The notes beneath the pieces are model-generated. The model had not been told where the DNA came from and did not search any database. It was given only the letters and a program-made list of their open reading frames with translations. Shown here piece after piece: positions 6,721 through 63,436 of a stretch of 64,000 nucleotides of DNA (position 1 is its first letter; each line of letters begins with the position of its first letter). The position numbers and the translations under genes were made by a program. The stretch covers positions 3,392,001 through 3,456,000 of the forward strand of contig OY970178.1 in assembly GCA_963707915.1 (NCBI GenBank), given 5' to 3'. The stretch is from Candidatus Eiseniibacteriota bacterium. Lineage in GTDB: Bacteria; Eisenbacteria; RBG-16-71-46.

Positions 6721-8922
<2,202 letters not shown>

Positions 8923-8993
8923 CCGAGCGAGACGTCATCCCGGGCCCGGCTACCGTGGACGGGCCCGGCACACTCCCCCGACAGGAGGTCTCC

Positions 8994-9518
8994 ATGCGAT
9001 TCCCGAGTGGATGCTGGGTACTCACCCTGGCGCTCGCCACCGTCCTGGCCGGGGGGTGCGCGACGGGCCGCAGGCCGGCGACGGCGGCGGACACCGCCGC
9101 CATCGAGGCCGCCGCGGACAGCCTCACGCAGGCCGAGAACACCGCGATCGCGGCGCGCGACACCAACGCCATCGCCGATTGCTACACCGCCGACGCGCGC
9201 ATGCTGCCGCCGAACCTGCCGCGGGTGGAGGGGAGGGACGCGATCCGGGCGACGTGGGCCCGGATGCTGGCCATGCCCGGCCTGACGCTGACGCTCGCCT
9301 CCGGGCAGAAGCTGGTGTCCGAGAGCGGCGACCTGGTCGTGGACCTGGGGACCTACGCGTTCACCGCCCGGGGTCCGAAGGGCAAGCCCCTGCAGGACAC
9401 CGGCAAGTACGTGACCGTGCTGAAGAAGGTGGACGGGCGGTGGAAGATGGCGGTGGACGTCTGGAACAGCGACCTGGCCGCGCCGGGGACGGCGAAGCCG
9501 GCGACCGCGCTTCCGTGA
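8994..9518 (+). CDS. DUF4440/SnoaL-like (NTF2 fold) lipoprotein
   Basis: LAGGC lipobox; YTADARMLPPN...GRDAIR...DTGKYVTVLKK.DGRWK. Confidence 0.8.
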   Translation: MRFPSGCWVLTLALATVLAGGCATGRRPATAADTAAIEAAADSLTQAENTAIAARDTNAIADCYTADARMLPPNLPRVEGRDAIRATWARMLAMPGLTLTLASGQKLVSESGDLVVDLGTYAFTARGPKGKPLQDTGKYVTVLKKVDGRWKMAVDVWNSDLAAPGTAKPATALP

Positions 9519-52148: not shown

Positions 52149-52280
52149 GCAATGGGTCTCCGGTGACGGGTGATCCGGCGCCCGCGGCCCCGCCCGGTTT
52201 CACCCGGCGTCCCCGCAGGCAAGATGGCCCCCATTATCCACGACCCGGCCCGGCCGCCCAAGCGGGCCGCCAGGAGACCG

Positions 52281-52985
52281 ATGTCCGCGAGCCAGCCCGC
52301 GCCGCACGCGCCCGACGAGCCCGGACGGCCCCTGCGGCCCCCGCGGGGCCTGCGGCCCCGGGAGAAGCTGCGCGCCCGCGGGCCGTCCGCGCTGGCCGAC
52401 GCCGAGCTGCTCGCGCTGGTGCTGGGATCGGGCACGGCCGGACGCAGCGCGCTGCGCATCGGGCGTCACCTGGCCCGCCGCAGCCCGCAGGAGCTGGGCG
52501 CCTGGTCGAGCGCGCGCTGGCTGCTCGTGCCCGGCGTCGGTCCCGCGCACGCGGCCGCGCTGGCGGCGGCCTTCGAGCTGGGACGCCGGGCGGCCGAGGG
52601 AGCGCCCGGCGGCGCGGCGATCCGCGGCCCCGAGGACGTGCTCGCCCAGGTGCGCGACCTGCCGCGCGCGCGCAAGGAGCACTTCGTCGTGTTGCTGCTC
52701 AACGCGCGCCACGAGATGCAGTGCCGCGAGGTGGTCTCGATCGGCAGCCTCAACGCGTCCATCGTGCACCCCCGCGAAGTGTTCCAGCCCGCCATCCTGC
52801 ACTCGGCCGCCGCCGTGGTGCTGGTGCACAACCATCCCAGCGGCGACCCGGAGCCCAGCGAGGAGGACCTGAGCATCACCCGGCGGCTGGTGCAGGTGGG
52901 GGAGGTGGTCGGCATCGCGGTGCTCGACCACGTCATCGTGGCGATGCGCGGCCTGGTGAGCCTGCGCGCCCGGCAACTGCTCTGA
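52281..52985 (+). CDS. radC: RadC/JAB-MPN domain protein
   Basis: PREKL...G..AL.DAELLA, EHF, GSLNASIVHPREVF, HNHPSGD.EPS.ED, LDHVI. Confidence 0.95.
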   Translation: MSASQPAPHAPDEPGRPLRPPRGLRPREKLRARGPSALADAELLALVLGSGTAGRSALRIGRHLARRSPQELGAWSSARWLLVPGVGPAHAAALAAAFELGRRAAEGAPGGAAIRGPEDVLAQVRDLPRARKEHFVVLLLNARHEMQCREVVSIGSLNASIVHPREVFQPAILHSAAAVVLVHNHPSGDPEPSEEDLSITRRLVQVGEVVGIAVLDHVIVAMRGLVSLRARQLL

Positions 52986-53129
52986 AGCCGGCTCCACGCG
53001 GCCGTCTCCTCGCGCCGCGGCCCGCGGCGTCCCGGACGACCGGTGGCGCCGTCGCTCGTGCCGTGTCGCGTGTTCGCGGGACGCCGGGCGCCGCTTGCCG
53101 GGGCGCCTGCGACGGGCCATGCTCCGGGC

Positions 53130-53549
53130 ATGGCAGAAGGCCACGGCACGTTCGACCACACCGGCGACCTGGGTCTCGAGGTCCGGGCCCCGAGCGCCGC
53201 GCGGCTCTTCGCCCTGGCGGCCGAGGCCCTGATGGCGCTGGTCGCGGACGCGCGCGGGGCCCCGCCCGACCTGGAGCGGGCCGTGCGCATCACCGGGGAC
53301 GACCCCGAGGACCTGCTGGTGCACTGGCTCAACACCGTGCTGCTGGAGTCCGAACTGGCGAAGGTGGTATGGACCAGCGCGGAGGTGCGCGTGCTGACGC
53401 CGACCGCGCTCGAGGCGACACTGCGCGGCTCGCGATTCGACCCCGCGCGCCAGACCTTCCTGCGCGAGGTCAAGGCCGTCTCCCTGCACGCGCTCGAGCT
53501 GGACCTGCACGAGCCGGACTGCCGCTGTCGCCTGGTGCTCGACCTCTGA
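53130..53549 (+). CDS. Archease
   Basis: FDHTGDLG, LLVHWLN, EVKAVSLH, VLDL C-terminus. Confidence 0.88.
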   Translation: MAEGHGTFDHTGDLGLEVRAPSAARLFALAAEALMALVADARGAPPDLERAVRITGDDPEDLLVHWLNTVLLESELAKVVWTSAEVRVLTPTALEATLRGSRFDPARQTFLREVKAVSLHALELDLHEPDCRCRLVLDL

Positions 53550-53571
53550 GCGCGCTCCATCGTGGCCCCCA

Positions 53572-53658
53572 ATTCGGCAACGGGCGCGGCGTCGGTCTGG
53601 GCGGCCCCGCACCCTGGCGCGAATCGTCGGCGTTTTCGAAGACGGCTCTGGAGTCTGA
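53572..53658 (+). pseudogene. Decayed 3' remnant of the double-HTH gene (left end of cassette 1)
   Basis: RGVGL/RPRTLARIVGVFEDGSGV* aligns in register with RGVGIPRPCTLAGMAAALEVDLRA* of 59354-59794; DNA similarity continues to 53709 (equivalent to 59858). Confidence 0.6.
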
Positions 53659-53736
53659 GACCAGGCATGCCAGCCTTTCCGAGGGATGTGGCCACCTGTC
53701 CGACATCGGCGAGGACGTGCGGTTTGGCCTTGCGTC

Positions 53737-53748
53737 GGGGGGGGGGGG
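53737..53748 (+). repeat. G12 homopolymer in the putative promoter region of the large cargo gene
   Basis: TTGCGT-C-G12-TATGTGCTACT. Confidence 0.8.
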
Positions 53749-53887
53749 TATGTGCTACTCGTCCAGAGGTCCTTGATCGCGAGCACGGAGAAGCACGTAC
53801 GTCGCGGGGCGGCTGATTCGGCCGCCGTAGCACGTGGGCCGTCTTCGATGCTCGACAGGTCAGGGACCTTCCTCGGAGGCCGCGCAC

Positions 53888-56800
53888 ATGTCCCACCGTT
53901 TCCTGCCTGCCCTGGCAGGCATGCTGGTCTTTGCTGCCCTCGTCCCCTCTACTGCCTCCGCCGGCAACAACGCCGGCGGTCGGGCGTTCCTCAGCTGGGA
54001 CCGCGCAGGTATGGATTCCGTGCTCACCGAGGTTCCAGTGGCGCCCTTCCCTCTGTTCCTGAACCTGCGCGACGCTCCCGACGTGCACGCGCTTGCGGCG
54101 CGGATCATCTGGACCACGAACACCGAGGGCGCCCCGCCGTGCTACATGCTCGTTTCGGCGAGCGCGCCCGACGCGGCTCCGGCCCCAGACAGCCTGGGTG
54201 GTTGGGCCTTTGACTCGCGTCCCGGCCAGGACTTCAACGGTGACACGACCTACACCTGGACCATAGCCTTCGACGCCAACGACAGTTCGAAGGACCGCAT
54301 CGAGTACCGGGTCAGCGGAGCATCGTGCGCCGACACGGCGCACGCCGAGTTCCTGGCGGCGAGGGTGATGGTGATGGATGCCCTCGGCCGCATCGACACA
54401 CTGATTGTGACTGGGGGAGTCCGGATCGCACCACGGATCATCGACCTTGCGGTTGAGCAGGTCTCACCGAGGCGGGTCCCCGTGCGGCAGGCCACGGACC
54501 TCTCGATCATCGGTCGTGGCTTCGAGCCGGGCTCGCGCGTCTTCCTGCAACGTGGCGGCCAGCGCATCGAGGCGAGCCACGTGGTCGTGTCGGATCTGAC
54601 CGAACTCATGGCGCGGGTAGTGTCGCCCTTCTCCGGCGATGATTCGCTCGACCTGGTCGTCGAGCACCCGGTGGGCGTGGAAGCGAGCTTGCCTTCGAGC
54701 CTGCGGTCGACCGGCGCCGAACAGGACTCCTTCTATCGCCCCACGAATGACGACTTCGCGTTCACGCAGATCCCGCTGCGCGCGACGACAAGGGAGCAGA
54801 ATGAGTACCTGCAGGATCCGGTTACGCATCTCGAGTGGCCCGGTTGGCTGGACGGACCGAAACTGCGGGTAATCCGTGCGCCGGGTGATACCGTCGCGAT
54901 CATGCTGAGCCAGCCTTACAACGGAATCGGGCTACAGTCGAACCACTACGAGGCCTCATCATGGGTCCGCCTGCACCTGGACCCACCCCGGCTGGCGACG
55001 TCACTCGCAACGCTCGTCACGTCGGGAAAGACGTTCAAGCACGAGTCGGTGGACTTCCAGGACGGCGGCAAGCCGATCCTGCGCGTGCAGGTCAACTACG
55101 TGGACGGGGACTCGCACGTCACGCAGCTCGTCATCGGGACCAATGTGCGGAACTGGATATCGGGGCAGATGTTCTGCGGCGGTCAAGTGCGTCCTTTCTA
55201 CGACACGCCCCCCGCCGACCCGCTCGGGTCCTGTGCCCAGATCTACTCCGGTCCCGGTCAGACGGGCAGTCCGCCGCCGACAGTCCACTATGACCTGCAG
55301 GAAATCCCGCTCCCGGCATCGAAACGTGCCAAGCGCATCGAGTCGGTCGAGTTCCTAGCTGAGCCGGTCTACCATGTCTGCGGCAACTACTACGATGGCA
55401 CTAGCGGGATCTTCGGACTCGCGGTATGGCCTGAGTTCAAGGCCACTGACGCCGAAGGCGACACGGTCTCGCGACTGAGCCAGAACACGAACCAATCCCA
55501 CGGCGGCTACCTGTTCGGTAGCGAGGCGGTCGGGACGAGACGAACGACAGACGACACGGCGTGCCAAGTCGCCTCGGCGGCGATGAACTACTCGTTCCTC
55601 GGGGTGCCCTGCGCAGTGGACAGCTTGAACAACTTTCTGAGGCGCAGCCGCGGCTACTTCCCTGAGGACGTCGCCTTCGTCTCCAGGGTCTCGACCTCGG
55701 GCGACACGATCGAATTCAGAGGACCCGCTCTGGCCGACAGAATCAACTGGAAGCAGGACCATACCTTCCTCGTCGAGCGCGGAAGGTACGTCCACCCGAT
55801 CGCCACCTTCAGGATCTTGCCCGGAGAGCCCCGCCGGGCCGTTGTTGAAACGCGGCACGATCTCTCCTCCGCGGTCGCGGTCGGAGACACGGGACGGGTC
55901 TACTGGAGCATGAATCCCACAAGGGCCGATCGCTTCACACGGGACGCGAGCGGCCAGCCTCGCCTGCGCACGGTTGAGATCCCCGGTTCCCCAAGTCTCG
56001 CGGCGAAAGTGGAGAGCCTGCTGGTGCGTGGTATCCCGGTTCAGGTGAACACGCATGGGCACATGGTCGTGGCCGATGGCTGGGTGCCTTCGTTCCGCCC
56101 GGATACAACGGCTCGCGGTACCTATGCGATCCAGGATCCACTCGATCGCAGGAACTACCGGCGGCTGATCCAAGGGAAGTACCGGAACGAGTTCAAGCTA
56201 GCGCGCTACGTTGTCGCGGTCGGGGGTGGCCCGGGTCCGAACGCCCTCGCCGGGCTGAACGAGGCGGGAGACGAGCATGGCCTATCGATCGTCGTGGGCC
56301 ATGCAAGCAACGTGACGATCACGGACCCGATGGGTAGGAGCATCGCTCGCGACCCGGGGACAGGCCTCTACTCGAGCAGCATCCCGGACGCGTGGGTGAT
56401 CGATGACATCGTCGCCGATCACGATGTGGATGACGGGCTCGATGGCCCGCCGGTGATGCATCAGTTTCACCTGCCCGCTGCCGTCGATGGCCACTACACC
56501 GTCCGCGTTGATTCCGACGGCGGCATGGCCGTCTCCGTGGCCGCATTCGACACCGGTGGCGTTGTTGCCGCCACGGCTGCAATGGACACATCGCAGGCGC
56601 CGAGTGGGAACAGCTACGATGTGACGTACTCGGCCGCCACGTCATCGGTCGCGATCGCATGGCTCGGGCCAATCGCGGTGGAGGTCCGTTCCCCGGTGGA
56701 GCCTCGGTTCCGGGTGCTGCGCAACCCGACCAGCGGTCCCGTTCAGTTCGAGATTCGATCTGCCGAAGACACAGAGGCGGACCATCTCGAAGTATTCGAC

Positions 56801-56962
56801 CTTTGCGGCAGGCGAGTGGCCGCGCTCGACATCGGATCAGCGAGCCTGCGCGGCAGCGTCGTCACCTGGGACTGGCGAGGCGCTGGATGCCGCGCGGGGG
56901 TCTACTTCGCACTCCAGCGGTCCCGCGCCCGCGGCGTCGTGCGGTTTGTTGTACTGCGATAG
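53888..56962 (+). CDS. Large secreted multidomain protein: IPT/TIG, C39-like peptidase, beta domain, FlgD/T9SS-like C-terminal domain
   Basis: Signal peptide; VSP...IIGRGF.PG (IPT); TACQVASAAM, GHMVVADG, AIQDP (C/H/D); NP...EVFDL.GRRV...W....AGVYF...RFVVLR. Confidence 0.75.
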   Translation: MSHRFLPALAGMLVFAALVPSTASAGNNAGGRAFLSWDRAGMDSVLTEVPVAPFPLFLNLRDAPDVHALAARIIWTTNTEGAPPCYMLVSASAPDAAPAPDSLGGWAFDSRPGQDFNGDTTYTWTIAFDANDSSKDRIEYRVSGASCADTAHAEFLAARVMVMDALGRIDTLIVTGGVRIAPRIIDLAVEQVSPRRVPVRQATDLSIIGRGFEPGSRVFLQRGGQRIEASHVVVSDLTELMARVVSPFSGDDSLDLVVEHPVGVEASLPSSLRSTGAEQDSFYRPTNDDFAFTQIPLRATTREQNEYLQDPVTHLEWPGWLDGPKLRVIRAPGDTVAIMLSQPYNGIGLQSNHYEASSWVRLHLDPPRLATSLATLVTSGKTFKHESVDFQDGGKPILRVQVNYVDGDSHVTQLVIGTNVRNWISGQMFCGGQVRPFYDTPPADPLGSCAQIYSGPGQTGSPPPTVHYDLQEIPLPASKRAKRIESVEFLAEPVYHVCGNYYDGTSGIFGLAVWPEFKATDAEGDTVSRLSQNTNQSHGGYLFGSEAVGTRRTTDDTACQVASAAMNYSFLGVPCAVDSLNNFLRRSRGYFPEDVAFVSRVSTSGDTIEFRGPALADRINWKQDHTFLVERGRYVHPIATFRILPGEPRRAVVETRHDLSSAVAVGDTGRVYWSMNPTRADRFTRDASGQPRLRTVEIPGSPSLAAKVESLLVRGIPVQVNTHGHMVVADGWVPSFRPDTTARGTYAIQDPLDRRNYRRLIQGKYRNEFKLARYVVAVGGGPGPNALAGLNEAGDEHGLSIVVGHASNVTITDPMGRSIARDPGTGLYSSSIPDAWVIDDIVADHDVDDGLDGPPVMHQFHLPAAVDGHYTVRVDSDGGMAVSVAAFDTGGVVAATAAMDTSQAPSGNSYDVTYSAATSSVAIAWLGPIAVEVRSPVEPRFRVLRNPTSGPVQFEIRSAEDTEADHLEVFDLCGRRVAALDIGSASLRGSVVTWDWRGAGCRAGVYFALQRSRARGVVRFVVLR

Positions 56963-56981
56963 AGGGAGACGGAGGGCGACT

Positions 56982-57632
56982 ATGGGGAAGGGTTGTTGGG
57001 TACCGCTCTTGGTGCTGTTCTGGGCGCTGCTCGGTGGGTGTGCGGCGTCCAGCCCGCAAGCCCTCCGACCGTATTCGGTGCTCTCGGAGGTCAGGATCGA
57101 TGTCTGGGGAGGGGACACGCACCACGTAGGAGTCGTACTCGTGGACAGGACGGGCAGACGCTGTGGATGGGAGGCTGGCGCGGTTCTCCAGGACCTGTTC
57201 TGGGATTGCACGTACGACAACGCGGAGCCGGGCATCCCAGATGAGTTTCCACCCATGGACGACACGATTGGGACGTTGAGGTCGCTGGCCTGGGACGACT
57301 CTGCAACCACGGGTGAGTCGGGGTTGATGGCCTCCGAACAGCCGCCGATATCTAGCAGTTTCGTCATTGCGGCGCATGAGAATGGCACCGGCTTACTCAC
57401 CGCGGGCAAGTGTGAGCTGTGGGTTGTTCCGATCCAGACAGGCCCGGTGACCTTTCAGATTCGCGCCAAGCGCGGCTCGCCGCAACACTGTGGTAGCGCC
57501 GAATTCGTGGATTCGCTGCAATCTGGATTCCGCTACCGCTACTGCGCCGCGTGGAAGTCAACGGCCGACAGTTGCAGTGTCCGGATCAGCCTGGCGGCGC
57601 GTGAGAAGGTCGGGGAGAACTCCAAGAAGTAG
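56982..57632 (+). CDS. Lipoprotein partner of the large cargo gene
   Basis: GGAGGG RBS, LLGGC lipobox, VVLVDRTGRRCG motif. Confidence 0.7.
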   Translation: MGKGCWVPLLVLFWALLGGCAASSPQALRPYSVLSEVRIDVWGGDTHHVGVVLVDRTGRRCGWEAGAVLQDLFWDCTYDNAEPGIPDEFPPMDDTIGTLRSLAWDDSATTGESGLMASEQPPISSSFVIAAHENGTGLLTAGKCELWVVPIQTGPVTFQIRAKRGSPQHCGSAEFVDSLQSGFRYRYCAAWKSTADSCSVRISLAAREKVGENSKK

Positions 57633-57706
57633 CACTACAGTCCGGACAAGCTCCGTGCCTCGTGCGCCCGGTACTGCAACGCCTCCGCCAACGCGCGCAC
57701 GCTGAT

Positions 57707-58942
57707 TGATCCGCTACCCGCCACTGGAGCAGCCGGGCACGCTCAAAGCGAGTTCCTCGGGCGCCTCGGCTCCTTCGACCTCGGCACGATACTCCGCCGG
57801 GGTCCGCTGCCCCAAGCTCCCGTGGGGCCGTCGGTTGTTGTACTCCTCCCGCCAGGCGTCGAGCGACACCCGGGCGTCGATGACAGACAGAAAGTAGTGT
57901 TGCGATAAGCACTCACGCCTCAGCTGGGCGTTGAAGCTCTCGATGAAGGGGTTGTCGGTCGGCTTGCCCGGACGGCTGAAGTCCAGCCGCACGTGATTGA
58001 CGTAGGCCCAGTGGTCGAACGCCTTCGAGGTGAACTCCGTCCCGTTGTCCACGTGAATCACCGCCGGCAACCCGCGCCGTACACCTTCGCGCGTCAGCAC
58101 CCGGGCGACCTCGGCGCCGCCGAATGAGCCGCTGACCTCGAGGGCCACGCACTCGCGGGTGAACGTGTCGAGCACCGTCAGCACCCGCAGCTTCCGGCCA
58201 TCCGCCAGCGCATCGCTCACGAAGTCCATCGCCCAGAGCTGGTTGGTCCCGGTGGCCGTGAGTGTCTCTTGCCGGCGCACCGCACTGCGGCGCCGCTTGG
58301 GCCGTTTCGACCGCAGACAGAGCCCTTCTTCCCGATATAGCCGGTACGTCCGCTTGGCGTTCACCTTCCAGCCTTCCCGACGCAGCAACACCTGCACGCG
58401 GCGATACCCGTAGCTCACCCGGGTCGTCGCGATCTCCTTGATCCTCTGGCGCAGCGGGGTCTGATCCGGCCGGACCGGGCGGTACAGCATCGAGGACATT
58501 GCCGTTCCCGAGGCGCGGCAGGCCTTGCGCAAGCTCACGCGGTAGGCCTCCTGCATCCAGCGGGTCACGGCGCGGCGCTCGACCGGCCTTACCACTTTTT
58601 TCGGAGCGCCTCCTGCAGCATCGTCCGGTCCAGCGTCAGGTCCGCGACGACGGCCTTGAGGCGTCGGTTCTCGTCCCGCAGCTGCCGCAGCTCCCGCAGC
58701 TCCGGTGAGGAGATCCCACCGAACTTCTTCTTCCAGCGGTAGAACGTGGTCTCGGTGATGCCCAGCTCCCGGCAGACCTCCCCGACCACCACCCCGCCCT
58801 CGACCCGCTTCAGGGCCTGGGCAATCTGCTCGACCGTGAACTTGCTGGTCTTCATCCTGGGTCCTCCTCCTTGCGGTTCAGGAGGCCCCGAGGTTAGCTC
58901 ATTGCGACAGTCCCGCTGCTCCAGGAAACGGGGAGCGGATCA
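57707..58942 (-). mobile_element. IS3-family insertion sequence copy 1 (1236 bp, IS407-like), 4-bp TSD TGAT
   Basis: TGATCCGCT...AGCGGATCA imperfect terminal IRs; TGAT at 57703-57706 and 58943-58946. Confidence 0.95.
57714..58855 (-). CDS. IS3 transposase OrfA (58589-58855) and OrfB (57714-58595), -1 frameshift fusion
   Basis: HTH OrfA; DDE motifs WAMDF, DNGTEF, IESFN; A-AAA-AAG slippery site. Confidence 0.95.
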
Positions 58943-59335
58943 TGATGCACTCACCGCCCGCGAGGTCGGCGATCGTGCGCGCCACGCGCATGGCGCGATG
59001 CACAGCGCGCGCGCTCATGCCCCCACGGTCCACGGCGTCGGCGACGAGCCGTCGCCCGGCCTGATCCAGCGCGCAGCACTCATCGAGCCGCGACGGCGGC
59101 AGCAGCGCGTTCAGGCAGCCGCGCTCGCGCTGACGCGCCCGCGCCGCGAGCACACGCGCCCGAACCACGGCGCTCGACTCGCCCGCCGACGCCGCCTGCA
59201 GCTCGCGCGAGGTGAGCGCCGGCACCTCGACCTGCAGGTCGAGCCGGTCCAGCACCGGCCCGCTCACCCGGGCGTGGTAGTGCGCGATGTCGGTCGGCGT
59301 GCAGCGACAGCCGCGTTTCGGGTGCCCGAGCCACC

Positions 59336-59353
59336 CGCAACGGCACCGTTGCG
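59336..59353. other. Putative att site: CGCAACGG-CA-CCGTTGCG at the comM homology breakpoint
   Basis: Perfect 8-bp inverted repeat around a 2-bp core; homology to comM ends exactly at the core (59345 corresponds to 62221). Confidence 0.7.
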
Positions 59354-59794
59354 TTGCCTTTCTGCAACCTCCGCCTCCGTGGGCGCCGACCGCGAGTAAT
59401 CCCAAGGGGTTATCCGCAGGAGCCTCGGACGCTTGGTCAGCAGATCCGCCGGCGGAGGATAGACCTGGGGCTGACGCAACGAACCCTCGCTGAGCGGCTG
59501 GGCTGCTGCTTGGAGACGGTGGCGGGATGGGAGCAGGACGAGAGCGTGCCCCTGGCCCGGCGCTGGCCGGCGATCGAATCCGCCCTCGGCCCCGGGCTCG
59601 TTCCGGAACGGGACGGCCTCCCGGGGCGGGTCCTGGCCGCCCGGCTCCGGCTGGGGCTCACGCAGGAGGCCTTGGCGAAGCTCGCGGGCGTGGACCTCAG
59701 GACTGTTCGCAACGTGGAGCGGGGCGTCGGGATTCCCCGTCCTTGCACCTTGGCGGGGATGGCCGCCGCCCTCGAAGTGGACCTCCGTGCCTGA
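59354..59794 (+). CDS. Tandem double XRE-type HTH protein
   Basis: (L)PFC...YPQEPRTLGQQIRRRRIDLGLTQ..LA..LG....V..WE; second HTH RLRLGLTQEALAKLAGVD..TVRNVERG. Confidence 0.85.
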   Translation: MPFCNLRLRGRRPRVIPRGYPQEPRTLGQQIRRRRIDLGLTQRTLAERLGCCLETVAGWEQDESVPLARRWPAIESALGPGLVPERDGLPGRVLAARLRLGLTQEALAKLAGVDLRTVRNVERGVGIPRPCTLAGMAAALEVDLRA

Positions 59795-59858
59795 GACCGG
59801 GTTCGCCCACACCCATGGCTGGGGAGGATGTGGCGGGCGCCCTGCCATTCGATATCGG

Positions 59859-61094
59859 TGATCCGCTCCCCGTTTCCTGGAGCAGCGGGACTGTCGCAAT
59901 GAGCTAACCTCGGGGCCTCCTGAACCGCAAGGAGGAGGACCCAGGATGAAGACCAGCAAGTTCACGGTCGAGCAGATTGCCCAGGCCCTGAAGCGGGTCG
60001 AGGGCGGGGTGGTGGTCGGGGAGGTCTGCCGGGAGCTGGGCATCACCGAGACCACGTTCTACCGCTGGAAGAAGAAGTTCGGTGGGATCTCCTCACCGGA
60101 GCTGCGGGAGCTGCGGCAGCTGCGGGACGAGAACCGACGCCTCAAGGCCGTCGTCGCGGACCTGACGCTGGACCGGACGATGCTGCAGGAGGCGCTCCGA
60201 AAAAAGTGGTAAGGCCGGTCGAGCGCCGCGCCGTGACCCGCTGGATGCACGAGGCCTACCGCGTCAGCTTGCGCAAGGCCTGCCGCGCCTCGGGAACGGC
60301 AATGTCCTCGATGCTGTACCGCCCGGTCCGGCCGGATCAGACCCCGCTGCGCCAGAGGATCAAGGAGATCGCGACGACCCGGGTGAGCTACGGGTATCGC
60401 CGCGTGCAGGTGTTGCTGCGTCGGGAAGGCTGGAAGGTGAACGCCAAGCGGACGTACCGGCTATATCGGGAAGAAGGGCTCTGTCTGCGGTCGAAACGGC
60501 CCAAGCGGCGCCGCAGTGCGGTGCGCCGGCAAGAGACACTCACGGCCACCGGGACCAACCAGCTCTGGGCGATGGACTTCGTGAGCGATGCGCTGGCGGA
60601 TGGCCGGAAGCTGCGGGTGCTGACGGTGCTCGACACGTTCACCCGCGAGTGCGTGGCCCTCGAGGTCAGCGGCTCATTCGGCGGCGCCGAGGTCGCCCGG
60701 GTGCTGACGCGCGAAGGTGTACGGCGCGGGTTGCCGGCGGTGATTCACGTGGACAACGGGACGGAGTTCACCTCGAAGGCGTTCGACCACTGGGCCTACG
60801 TCAATCACGTGCGGCTGGACTTCAGCCGTCCGGGCAAGCCGACCGACAACCCCTTCATCGAGAGCTTCAACGCCCAGCTGAGGCGTGAGTGCTTATCGCA
60901 ACACTACTTTCTGTCTGTCATCGACGCCCGGGTGTCGCTCGACGCCTGGCGGGAGGAGTACAACAACCGACGGCCCCACGGGAGCTTGGGGCAGCGGACC
61001 CCGGCGGAGTATCGTGCCGAGGTCGAAGGAGCCGAGGCGCCCGAGGAACTCGCTTTGAGCGTGCCCGGCTGCTCCAGTGGCGGGTAGCGGATCA
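59859..61094 (+). mobile_element. IS3-family insertion sequence copy 2 (1236 bp), no TSD
   Basis: Near-identical inverted copy of 57707-58942; flanks TCGG and CCCG differ. Confidence 0.95.
59946..61087 (+). CDS. IS3 transposase OrfA (59946-60212) and OrfB (60206-61087)
   Basis: Same as copy 1; CGA-AAA-AAG-TGG-TAA frameshift window. Confidence 0.95.
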
Positions 61095-61209
61095 CCCGCA
61101 GCGGCTGGCCTCTTGATCTGTACCAGCGTTGGGGGCTACGTCAATCAGGCTGGCAACGGAGAACGTCGCGATCACGCGGCGCGTGGTCGTGCTTGGCGGG
61201 AGGCACTGA
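61095..61209 (+). pseudogene. C-terminal remnant of a FlgD/T9SS-like cargo gene
   Basis: GGYV/IRLATENVAITRRVVVLGGRH*; stop overlaps next start (TGATG). Confidence 0.55.
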
Positions 61210-61730
61210 TGAGGCTTCTCGGCGTTATGGCGATTGTGGTTGCGGGGTGCGCCCTGGTGGGCTCGAGCACGGCGGGTTCGGCAGGGAAGCGGAGCACTGC
61301 AACTGACCGGCTCTACATCGTCGTGCATGGTGGCGCGCACGTGGTCCTCACCGACGCGAGGGGGAGGACGTCAGGTGACTGTGATACCACGGGAGTCCGC
61401 ATCCCCGCTTGCGAGTATAGAACGGACGTGGCGTTGTTTGCTCCTCGTGCGACGGAGAAGCGAATGGTCATGTTCATCCTCGGGCCTCCTTCCCCTGGGC
61501 GTTACCGGCTCGGTGCTGAGGTAGCGGACAGCGGTGGGGTCTTCGTCGAGTGTGCGTGGCAGAGTGCAGGGGGTGGCGGGACGTCGGCTGGCGGTCTCCC
61601 TGCTGAAATCGGTACGCACGGTGTCTGGAGCATCCAGTGGGTCCAGGGCAGTCATGGGAAGCCCTCCACGCTGCAGTCGCGACGGATTGAGCCCCCGGAC
61701 ACCTCCGGGGCGACGTCGCCTAGGCGCTGA
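61209..61730 (+). CDS. Small exported protein, paralogous to the beta domain of the large cargo protein
   Basis: Signal peptide; LYIVVHGGAHVVLTDARGRTSG...IP...P.PGRYRL. Confidence 0.7.
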   Translation: MRLLGVMAIVVAGCALVGSSTAGSAGKRSTATDRLYIVVHGGAHVVLTDARGRTSGDCDTTGVRIPACEYRTDVALFAPRATEKRMVMFILGPPSPGRYRLGAEVADSGGVFVECAWQSAGGGGTSAGGLPAEIGTHGVWSIQWVQGSHGKPSTLQSRRIEPPDTSGATSPRR

Positions 61731-61732
61731 CT

Positions 61733-63262
61733 TCACGACGTCCTTCCCGGATGAGTGCCGGCTATGAGTCTCCCCTCGTACGCCCGGTACTGCAACGCCT
61801 CTGCCAGCGCGCGCACGATGATGCGCTCCTCGCCTGCCAGGTCCGCGATGGTCCGCGCCACGCGCATGGCGCGGTGCACGGCGCGTGCGCTCATGCCGCC
61901 GCGGTCCACGGCATCGGCGACGAGCCGTCGTCCGGCCTGATCCAGCGCGCAGCACTCATCGAGCCGCGACGGCGGCAGCAGCGCGTTCAGGCAGCCGCGC
62001 TCGCGCTGACGCGCCCGCGCCGCGAGCACCCGTGCCCGCACCGTCGCGCTCGACTCGCCCGATGTTGCCGCCTGCAGCTCGAGCGCCGTCAGCGCTGGCA
62101 CCTCGATCTGTATATCAATCCTGTCCAACACCGGCCCGCTCACCCGCGCGTGGTGCTGTGCGATCTCGGTCGGCGTGCACCGACAGCCCCGTCGCGGATG
62201 CCCGAGCCAACCGCAGCGGCAGGGGTTCATCGCCGCGACCAGCAGGACGCTCGCCGGGAACTCGCTGGCGCCGCTGGCGCGCACGATGGTGACCGTGCCG
62301 TTCTCGAGCGGCTGGCGCAGCGCGTCCAGCAGTCCGCGCGCGAACTCGGAGAGTTCGTCGAGGAACAGCACGCCGTGGTGGGCGAGCGAGATCTCGCCGG
62401 GGCGCGGCGGCGAGCCGCCACCCACCAGCCCGGCGGAGGAGACCGTGTGGTGCGGGGCGCGGTAGGGGCGGCGGGTCATCAGCCCGCGCCCGGGGCGGCG
62501 CAGCCCGGCGGCCGAGTGCAGTCGCGTGACCACCAGCGCCTCCTCGGGCTCGAGCGGCGGGAGGATGCCGGGCAGCCGTCTCGCGAGCATGGACTTGCCG
62601 GCGCCGGGCGGGCCGACGTAGAGCAGGTGGTGTCCGCCCGCGGCGGCGATCTCGAGTGCGCGGCGCGCCACCGCCTGGCCGCGCACGTCGCAGAGATCCT
62701 CGCTCCTCGCGGGCTCCGGATCGGGCGGCGCCGGGGCCTGGCAGGGCCGCTCCGCTCCGCGCAGCCAGTCGATCGCCTCCTGCAGGGTGTCCACGGCGTG
62801 CACGGCCAGCCCTTCGACGAGGGCGGCCTCCGGGGCGCAGCCGGAGGCGCACAGCAGGGTCGTCACGCCCGCGCGCCACAGCGCCTCGGCCAGTGGCAGG
62901 GTGCCGCGCACGCCGCGCAGGCGGCCGTCGAGTGCCAGTTCGCCCAGCGCGGCCGCGCCGTCGAGCCGCTCACGCGGGGCCTGCCCGGTGGCGACCAGCA
63001 CGCCCACGGCGACGGCGAGGTCGGTCGACGAGCCCTCCTTGCGGCGCTCGGCGGGGGCGAGGTTCACGGTGACCTTGCGGTCGGGCAACTGGAAGCCGGC
63101 GTTGCGCAGCGCGGGCCAGACCCGGTCGCGCGCCTCGCGGCCGGTGGCGTCGGGCAGGCCCACGAGGACGAAGCCGGGCAGGCCGGGCCCGACGTCCACC
63201 TCGCACTCGACCGGGAGCGCCTCCAGCCCCCACAGGGCGGCGGTCCGCACGCGGCTCAGCAT
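61733..63262 (-). CDS. comM: YifB/ComM Mg-chelatase-like AAA+ ATPase
   Basis: VGLPD...E.R.RV, NLAPA...KEG, GPPGAGKSM, RAPHH, PGEISLAHHGVLFLDE, AAMNPCRCG. Confidence 0.95.
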   Translation of the reverse strand: MLSRVRTAALWGLEALPVECEVDVGPGLPGFVLVGLPDATGREARDRVWPALRNAGFQLPDRKVTVNLAPAERRKEGSSTDLAVAVGVLVATGQAPRERLDGAAALGELALDGRLRGVRGTLPLAEALWRAGVTTLLCASGCAPEAALVEGLAVHAVDTLQEAIDWLRGAERPCQAPAPPDPEPARSEDLCDVRGQAVARRALEIAAAGGHHLLYVGPPGAGKSMLARRLPGILPPLEPEEALVVTRLHSAAGLRRPGRGLMTRRPYRAPHHTVSSAGLVGGGSPPRPGEISLAHHGVLFLDELSEFARGLLDALRQPLENGTVTIVRASGASEFPASVLLVAAMNPCRCGWLGHPRRGCRCTPTEIAQHHARVSGPVLDRIDIQIEVPALTALELQAATSGESSATVRARVLAARARQRERGCLNALLPPSRLDECCALDQAGRRLVADAVDRGGMSARAVHRAMRVARTIADLAGEERIIVRALAEALQYRAYEGRLIAGTHPGRTS

Positions 63263-63436
63263 GGGAATGGCTCCGCGGGGGCGGGCGGTAGGGGGACGCT
63301 CGCAGCTATGCAAACGGCGGGCCCGTTCGAGCCTGCGCCGCACCCCGCGTCGGCGGGCGGTGCTGCCCGCCTTCGTCCGCCCCGCCCGTCCGCCGGCCCG
63401 CGGACGTCCGGGGCGGATCTGCGCCCTGCTGCGGGC

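Follow-up and report, generated by a model that had tools for sequence, protein, structure and literature searches.

Beside comM (yifB-like) in Candidatus Eiseniibacteriota bacterium lies an array of two gene units, each of which holds a helix-turn-helix (HTH) gene or its remnant, cargo genes and a copy of the comM 3′ part (the tail). The array sits in the window, the whole 64,000-nucleotide stretch analyzed here (bases 3392001-3456000 of a single-contig 3.62-Mb genome, G000). We read the two units as recombinase-less and comM-restoring, left behind at the bacterial attachment (att) site, attB, of integrative elements that encode a large serine recombinase (LSR), and we put the probability of this reading at about 65%. 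It draws on the two-unit anatomy, on a junction fixed to one base, on the match of that junction to LSR att arms, on relatives with and without an LSR, and on damage by insertion sequences (IS). In the proposed mechanism, the TG of the first Cys codon in the comM CxCG motif would be the crossover point of attB for a family of LSR elements, whose LSR gene would end at one side of the element's own site, attP, and whose double-HTH gene would start at the other. Each unit would then comprise the HTH-side element end, cargo and a comM tail copy. The unit nearest comM would supply the current tail (B2), with the previous tail (B1) displaced behind the HTH gene of that unit (HTH2).

Anatomy and decay of the two units

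Open reading frames (ORFs) and domains were taken from a Pfam scan of window ORFs, and the signal-peptide and lipobox readings of unit cargo were made by eye; a codon-score gene finder overlooks the low-scoring genes of the island. Table 1 lists the features. The radC-archease flank is also found in the same-genus genome G004.

Table 1. Features of the comM array and its flanks, in window coordinates
Feature	Position	Strand	Remarks
radC	52170-52985		Directly upstream of archease; Pfam RadC, E = 4.3e-40
archease	53043-53549	+	Native flank, at the array end away from comM; Pfam Archease, E = 5.8e-29
HTH1 remnant	53584-53665	+	3′ end of an older HTH gene, stop included
Unit 1 large cargo ORF, 1042 aa	53834-56962	+	Signal-peptide-like N-terminus
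Unit 1 small cargo ORF, 228 aa	56946-57632	+	Lipobox-like start
B1 distal piece (displaced comM 3′ copy)	57658-57706	-	45/49 nt identical to 61774-61822
IS3-family copy 1	57707-58942	-	orfA 58589-58855, orfB 57714-58595; inside B1
B1 main piece (displaced comM 3′ copy)	58943-59345	-	Starts at TG, first Cys codon of CRCG
attR-like junction	59344-59357	.	CA on + strand (TG on comM strand), then conserved arm CCGTTGCGTTGC
HTH2, intact, 146 aa	59354-59794	+	Pfam HTH_3, two stretches, E = 9.2e-19; XRE-type
IS3-family copy 2	59859-61094	+	At the position of the large gene of unit 1; without target duplication
Second IS type, 49-nt right end	61095-61143	+	Two further genomic copies (~1.22 kb each) have ends 100% identical to it
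Unit 2 small cargo ORF, 177 aa	61197-61730	+	Lipobox-like start
B2 (comM 3′ part from TG, tail now in use)	61733-62221	-	TG at coding nt 1042 = window 62221
comM (yifB-like), intact	61733-63343	-	Likely start 63262; Pfam ChlI, Mg_chelatase, Mg_chelatase_C

An earlier note, made from the letters of the DNA alone, had proposed a tandem array of cassettes that restore comM, and its account of the comM side is borne out. The unit borders given there hold to the base. Read along the comM strand, the sequence is ...GCGATGAACCCC-TG-CCGCTGCGG in the intact gene, with TG at 62221/62220, and ...GCAACGCAACGG-TG-CCGTTGCGG in the displaced copy B1, with T at 59345; on the plus strand the latter is CA at 59344-59345, with the motif from 59346. 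This attR-like junction makes the palindrome CGCAACGG-TG-CCGTTGCG, and its motif has a single occurrence in the 3.62-Mb genome. A second comM 3′ copy does start at the CRCG codons: the main piece of B1, in which Pfam finds the end of Mg_chelatase and Mg_chelatase_C, is identical to the resident tail at 353/403 nt without gaps. HTH2 is intact, and the comM-proximal unit supplies the working 3′ end (B2) of an intact comM. HTH2 is the end gene of the element family described below. Unit 2 is thus bounded by att-derived sites on both sides, attB in comM (62221) and the attR-like junction (59344-59357). Unit 1 keeps its right-hand att-derived site only, its left end having been deleted.

Other parts of that account stood only in part or gave way. 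The HTH remnant at the head of unit 1 is real: it matches 59719-59801 at 54/83 nt with 34.7 bits, above the maximum of 28.4 bits among 200 shuffles, and the ending of its frame-1 translation resembles the HTH2 C-terminus. Only its last ~80 nt are left; deletion has removed from unit 1 the 5′ part of HTH1, its att arm and whatever comM tail it first had. Secreted cargo, described for both units, is present in unit 1 as a signal-like 1042-aa and a lipobox-like 228-aa ORF, but unit 2 has no large secreted gene, as its stretch from HTH2 to the small lipoprotein consists of an IS3 element and a 49-nt IS end. The FlgD or T9SS tail assigned to the large protein of unit 1 found no backing, the lone hint from Pfam in the C-terminal 100 aa being CHU_C at E = 0.14; the 1042-aa protein matches no Pfam family and a protein atlas search gave no usable match. 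Relatives of it, at 26-39% identity, hold the same position in the same-genus genomes G004 and G005. The 228-aa protein gives a sub-threshold Pfam match to N_NLPC_P60 only and is 24-28% identical to the small ORFs of the G004 units, while the 177-aa protein of unit 2 matches no Pfam family and is 31% identical to the small ORF of the G005 unit; the two small proteins have no detectable similarity to each other. Unit 1 had been called continuous, and its comM copy is in fact split by IS3 copy 1 (57707-58942). The statement that the array has no recombinase holds for Resolvase and Phage_integrase, neither of which has a Pfam match in 53572-62221; taken literally it is wrong, because two DDE transposase gene pairs are present. 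These IS3 transposases are later insertions, and the units have no recombinase of their own.

Both IS3 copies in the array are 1236 bp long and mutually inverted, and a third lies outside it, the three being 99.8-100% identical. They bear the marks of the family: orfA with HTH_Tnp_1, orfB with an rve/rve_3 DDE domain, and ends TGATCC...GGATCA. Copy 1 is flanked by a TGAT target duplication (tgat on either side of the IS), and the comM sequence runs on across it without a break; copies 2 and 3 have no target duplication. Copy 2, with flanks tcgg and cccg, abuts the 49-nt stub of the other IS, which marks a nested insertion followed by deletion. Since the homology between units 1 and 2 extends right to the insertion point of copy 2, and since the units of G004 and G005 consist of HTH, large gene and small gene, unit 2 probably once had a large gene that was lost through IS-mediated deletion. 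The units in this genome are relics, IS-hit and decayed, and are most likely immobile now because the cognate LSR is absent from the genome. The 916 bp between the two inverted copies (57707-58942 and 59859-61094) hold HTH2 in full and the greater part of B1; the whole resembles a composite transposon and could invert by homologous recombination.

Two IS copies of such similarity only 916 nt apart speak for an assembly artefact, in which a mis-join would have created the second tail of comM or the pair of inverted IS copies. We regard this as highly improbable. The assembly consists of one 3.62-Mb contig, the tails differ from each other at 50 positions and so are not collapsed or duplicated reads, and parts of the region are matched exactly by short contigs of runs X1 and X2. 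One run contig (61065-61198) crosses the joint between IS copy 2 and the second IS with 1 mismatch and 2 gaps, and the same architecture recurs in G004 and many other assemblies.

A junction shared with large serine recombinase elements

Relatives of the HTH gene were collected from 61 related genomes and from an HTH-alignment scan of species-level genomes, whose loci are labelled L. HTH2 relatives occur in 20/61 related genomes, often in several copies each, and the scan gave 69 loci, which by record title belong to Eisenbacteria, Thermoanaerobaculia, Binatia, Verrucomicrobiota, Gemmatimonadota, Bacteroidota, Elusimicrobia, Planctomycetes and others. Among the 53 HTH copies whose N-terminus lies on the contig, 18 stand head-to-head with a comM fragment that begins at this same Cys codon, according to an automatic flag, and three more were recognized by eye (L061, L080 and L089). 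When the 46 comM-fragment junctions from all non-redundant loci are lined up on TG, GCAACGC is found exactly 5 nt before TG in 25, and in 32 if up to one mismatch is allowed, as compared to 0/24 resident comM genes. The other 14 junctions keep a short 5′ piece, have more distant variants of the arm, or are mis-registered alignments (L024, L051). The junction between HTH and comM, which the earlier note expected to fall at one base in other genomes, does recur in this way.

The source of the arm is visible in genomes that carry an LSR (Resolvase plus Recombinase domains) beside the att site, namely G035, G022, G039, G055 and the locus L068. In G035, a 533-aa protein of this type reads into ...GCAACGCAACCT-TG followed by the comM tail (...GGCAATTGGCAACGCAACCT-TG, then the tail). 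G022, G039 and G055 have orthologues (64-69% identical) that meet the 5′ part of comM at this TG. A matching HTH/tail junction lies on another contig of G022 (a slash marks a junction), so the whole element there would read 5′ part/LSR...HTH/tail, with comM split. The G035 element is reversed, as 5′ part/HTH...LSR/tail, and its interior bridges two contigs via a second LSR gene. The reconstructed attP of G035 is GCAACGC-N5-TG-N5-GCGTTGC, and that of G022 is the same with a CA centre, its element being oppositely oriented; dyad symmetry and an orientation linked to the central dinucleotide are thus found, in two elements (G035 and G022). The comM/HTH and LSR/tail junctions of G035 have TG alone in common with intact comM, which makes a 2-bp core, and the window junctions at 62221/62220 and 59345/59344 fall on this same TG. 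A 2-bp core with polarity tied to orientation is an established hallmark of serine integrases. Judged by form, the window HTH/B1 junction would be an HTH-side attP arm joined to the comM side of attB.

Close LSR orthologues are found in 5 genomes, all of them among the 20/61 with the HTH gene, and upstream of the LSR, a TrwB/TraG-like ATPase of ~1035 aa and defence-type genes are present in 3/3 loci with enough sequence. L068 holds LSR, attP and HTH in the unrecombined state. There (L068:8408-10780, plus strand), LSR and double-HTH form one 791-aa open frame with Resolvase, Recombinase and HTH_3, and the reconstructed attPs of G035 and G022 also lie in frame between LSR and HTH; integration would be predicted to split the fused gene. 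A search of 5.8 billion proteins did not find the fused protein (2 matches, both unfused). Compared with plasmids and phages, the L068 LSR-HTH protein matched 370 records among the former and 660 among the latter, none covering 80% of it and all distant LSR matches. Nothing points to known phages either, viral contigs having given just 7 weak, generic XRE matches to the HTH alignment.

Recombinases of other kinds are distant from the array. The window contains no tyrosine recombinase, and the nearest of 7 Phage_integrase matches genome-wide is at 3385943-3386341, ~60 kb away. The only LSR of the genome (521 aa, G000:C1:3353631-3355193, with its Resolvase match at 3354744-3355175) is ~37 kb before the window start, sits among low-scoring genes and looks like part of another island. 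It is 55% identical to the second LSR in the G035 comM element and 53% identical to an LSR that lies 7.6 kb from an HTH copy in L074.

The earlier note had asked about a serine recombinase in related genomes; it is present in cis in some relatives, and others have units that lack it as the window does, so that a cis-encoded integrase is not a constant companion. By tblastn with four recombinase queries, no LSR was found in any complete unit bounded by comM pieces, the units searched being those of the window (2), L061/G004, L063/G021, L071, L075, L076 (2), L094, L101, L112/G031, L015, L022 and L088; nor did Pfam find one in the subset whose ORFs were scanned. Cargo of LSR-less units includes GH32/43-like proteins with FlgD_ig tails, beta-propellers with Por_Secre_tail, S8 and C25 peptidases, RND pumps and a SIR2-STAND pair with a SMODS protein, among others. 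Units in tandem with an autonomous element at the same site occur in G035 (5′ part/HTH...LSR/tail-cargo-HTH/tail) and G005 (tail-cargo-HTH/element with two serine recombinases/tail-radC), and not in the window genome.

These results bear on the cassette model of the earlier note in its strict form, in which a unit circle closing 62221 to 59346 would enter the comM TG in integron fashion, by a recombinase acting in trans. Exact and recurrent unit borders are what it predicts, and it draws further on an att arm beside HTH that is conserved across phyla, on multi-unit arrays (L076 with two units beside an intact comM, L080 with three tails, L101 with two or three), and on Binatia loci where the same HTH family is arrayed beside the 3′ fragment of a MoxR-like AAA+ gene. 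The LSR element at the HTH/tail junction in G005 also implies that a site other than plain attB was used at least once. The model would, however, need an attR-like site to pair with attB, as HTH/tail combines an attP-type with an attB-type arm. By the established behaviour of LSRs, the integrase by itself recombines attP with attB only. A tail copy whose distal end varies (see below) opposes a defined cassette end, and no unit circle was seen in the low-depth contigs of the public runs. The cognate LSR is absent from the window genome, and mobilization in trans is not supported; we consider the strict model doubtful. The terms 'integron-like' and 'undescribed' fail as well, because the junction is the arm of an LSR attP, and comM is already the commonest reported LSR target.

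Several loci depart from the common layout. In Binatia (L084:4362, L091:4474 and 10730, L073:41 and 4186), the same HTH family stands head-to-head with the 3′ fragment of another AAA+ gene, MoxR-like by eye from its translation, and in L091 a 1001-nt repeat at 85.7% makes a two-unit array. The array habit is therefore not confined to comM. Verrucomicrobial contigs carry three (L096:3552, 10001, 13857) and two (L097:3049, 6582) HTH copies, each preceded by one shared ~75-nt stretch that is not comM. In L083/L019 (G010:C2), L021 (G010:C146), L062, L067 and L078, the unit runs from a short comM-5′-like arm joined to HTH, through cargo, to a comM tail, ends in a short 5′ remnant of 10-40 nt, and sits between unrelated genes such as thiolase or AbiEii; its outer arms repeat each other in inverted orientation, and the contigs may be mis-binned or rearranged. 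A comM 5′ part in G005:C231 (L048:7116-7257) stops 5 nt before TG (...GCGATGAAT, then GAGAGG...) and is followed by unrelated sequence to the contig end, and this break may be another insertion beside the att site. L071, from a record titled Brevundimonas and with 39% G+C, shares its unit layout and junction with the Bacteroidota isolate L075 (Sediminibacterium); the L071 contig is probably mis-binned.

Divergence of the comM tails and origin of the units

B1 and B2 form a mosaic in which a 99-nt identical tract is flanked by regions ~80% and ~92% identical. Their 50 differences in 403 nt alter only ~14 codons by hand count, so the two tails have diverged as working genes in different lineages. 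Local tandem duplication of the HTH-cargo-comM neighbourhood, inherited vertically with no mobile element, would suit an array with just two comM tails and two HTH traces, the leftmost of which abuts archease without a third tail, and a two-unit layout that is shared by G004. It is at odds with a 12% difference between B1 and B2 made up mostly of silent changes, with unrelated cargo proteins in units 1 and 2, with a junction that is an LSR att arm, and with an HTH gene that is patchy among relatives (20/61) and whose junction also occurs in other phyla; such a duplication is very unlikely to be the source.

Turnover is also evident within the genus. The protein of the comM 5′ part is 92-93% identical between the window genome and G004 or G005, whereas the HTH proteins of G004 and G005 are only 70% identical to that of the window and the large proteins 26-39%; the units of these congeneric genomes are therefore not orthologous. 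Between G000 and G004, comM DNA is 90.4% identical before TG and 85.1% after it, with the best change-point 35 nt before TG (log-likelihood gain 12), and at 10 other loci the fragment is 72%-96% identical to the resident gene. A tree of comM tails places the two tails of the window within the genus clade without resolving them, and no donor can be named. These results fit tails that travelled with units or were replaced by homologous exchange, not recent in-place duplication here. A clean empty site was not found in the same genus: what lies between radC and comM in G006 is unrelated, and the contigs of G007 break in comM. In G006 (L046:207-1098, G006:C222), archease is missing from this position and an antisense frame takes its place, which by eye looks like part of an IS110-type transposase.

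One possible explanation, which we judge unlikely, is that no cassette ever moved: after one ancient LSR integration, homologous recombination only would have acted, through unequal crossing-over, Campbell-type insertion via the 0.5-kb tail and allelic replacement by transformation, with the units as scars and stranded cargo. In the cultured Sediminibacterium goheungense DSM 28323 (L075), a 3.1-kb insert lies between direct repeats of 1255 bp (97.3% identical), an arrangement that looks like the classic product of a single crossover or tandem duplication. Variable distal borders and the mosaic of B1 and B2 point the same way, as do tails that resemble the host's own comM type in every phylum. 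On the other hand, units of congeneric genomes are not orthologous, and a junction found in many phyla with phylum-specific HTH sequences would need many independent founding events. In G035, LSR elements occupy the regenerated attB of such an array, which indicates that site-specific events continue at these loci.

Returning to units left at an LSR attB, we infer that they arose or spread by accretion. Two routes are plausible, each of which needs only ordinary reactions. By the first, an LSR element would enter the intact attB of an array and later leave with or without the neighbouring unit, for which cis-mobilisable elements and the pseudo-SCC type of staphylococcal cassette chromosome (SCC) offer precedent, and composite arrays that could feed this route exist in G035 and G005. 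By the second, tandem duplication across attR (HTH/tail) and the comM tail would be followed by precise excision of the LSR element via the nearer junction. Homologous exchange among relatives could reshuffle units after either route. A more far-reaching version, which we hold to be rather doubtful, takes the LSR-less units for a living cassette system, in which the serine recombinase of a visiting element would shuttle HTH-cargo-tail units into and out of comM and at least one further AAA+ gene. It is about as doubtful that secreted-protein or defence cargo would in this manner be swapped across many phyla with the target gene kept working. We are no more inclined to accept a corollary for the recombinase gene, which when free would read through attP into HTH and would be split on integration, a change that could set the direction of the reaction.

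Several points weigh against our reading of the array. An extra, unobserved step is required, because conservative site-specific recombination cannot duplicate the comM tail, and the origin of unit 1 is deduced from an 83-nt HTH remnant and a comM copy only, because its att arm is lost. LSRs of the G035 type have 0 matches in the window genome (E <= 1e-10), and the sole Resolvase match, the 521-aa LSR, is of another subtype at 23% identity and lies ~98 kb from comM. The distal end of the duplicated tail varies between -35 and +177 nt relative to the stop codon, and in S. goheungense it lies at about +770 nt, a spread more easily explained by homologous or illegitimate recombination than by another specific site. 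Most of the related genomes are metagenome bins, in which mis-binning can mimic transfer. Both comM tails of G010:C38 (L015:2808-3278 and 8587-9060) group with genus g1 at support 100/99, G010 being of another genus, and this may reflect transfer of the unit or a mis-binned contig. Public runs (shares <= 0.13) yield low-depth contigs, too thin for a test of circles or empty sites; one weak case is a contig of X5 that joins 53549 to 61774 (side 37, below 95% likeness), and perhaps comes from a relative with archease beside comM.

Comparison with known systems

The protein ComM aids the uptake of foreign DNA by transformation, and most LSR elements that hit comM break it. Recombinase-less units with a spare tail would let the cell keep cargo without losing comM function, be it secreted proteins as in the window or the peptidases, pumps and defence genes found elsewhere. 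If the units are mobile, they would constitute a widespread cargo-exchange system akin to SCC islands, but in phyla of soil and sediment that are difficult to work with. The att arms, read off the sequences to the base, give a predicted site pair for a new integrase, and one host, S. goheungense DSM 28323, is in culture.

Both LSR elements in comM-like genes and recombinase-less tandem islands at an LSR site are already known (PMC10083194, PMC3146451). Mg-chelatase homologues (comM-like) are the commonest target of predicted site-specific LSRs, at 12.4%, and target genes are described as disrupted upon LSR insertion (PMC10083194). The elements of the relatives are like those reported there in their target, Resolvase and Recombinase domains, 2-bp core, dyad-symmetric attP and a polarity tied to the central dinucleotide; the window units differ from them in having no LSR and in keeping comM whole via a 0.5-kb tail copy (PMC10083194). 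The comM-site LSR is 24-27% identical to phage integrases such as that of phi105. We found no paper describing comM-restoring, LSR-less arrays with a 0.5-kb tail copy in several phyla in the limited literature searched.

Other islands offer parallels. SCCmec, pseudo-SCC and composite islands are serine-recombinase elements near the 3′ end of staphylococcal rlmH/orfX that leave the gene functional. SCC elements stack in tandem, and some units without recombinase genes rely on a neighbour. Their repeats are ~15-20 bp as opposed to a 0.5-kb gene tail here, and both the recombinases (CcrAB) and the target differ. To our knowledge, no HTH end gene occurs in SCC elements. The ssrA islands of Dehalococcoides are likewise tandem, lie downstream of one conserved gene and are each bounded by its 3′-end repeat; they use a serine recombinase of ~540 aa, and 15 that lack the integration module are read as cis-mobilisable elements formed by accretion (PMC3146451). 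Their repeat is 20 bp of a tmRNA gene versus ~490 bp of protein-coding sequence here, and end genes and hosts differ (PMC3146451). In Acinetobacter, comM is a hotspot where AbaR and further Tn7-like islands insert, often with defence or accessory genes, but these transposons inactivate comM in the Mg-chelatase domain, whereas here the site is an LSR attB and comM is intact (PMC11472951).

Integron cassettes share with the window array the stacking of recombinase-less units at a single site, where the newest lies closest to the point of entry. Unlike integrons, no tyrosine integrase (IntI) accompanies the site in the window. The units here also hold several genes in both directions and a regulator-like gene, and their junction is of LSR type. 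By analogy, they would resemble pseudo-SCC or cis-mobilisable elements more than integron cassettes.

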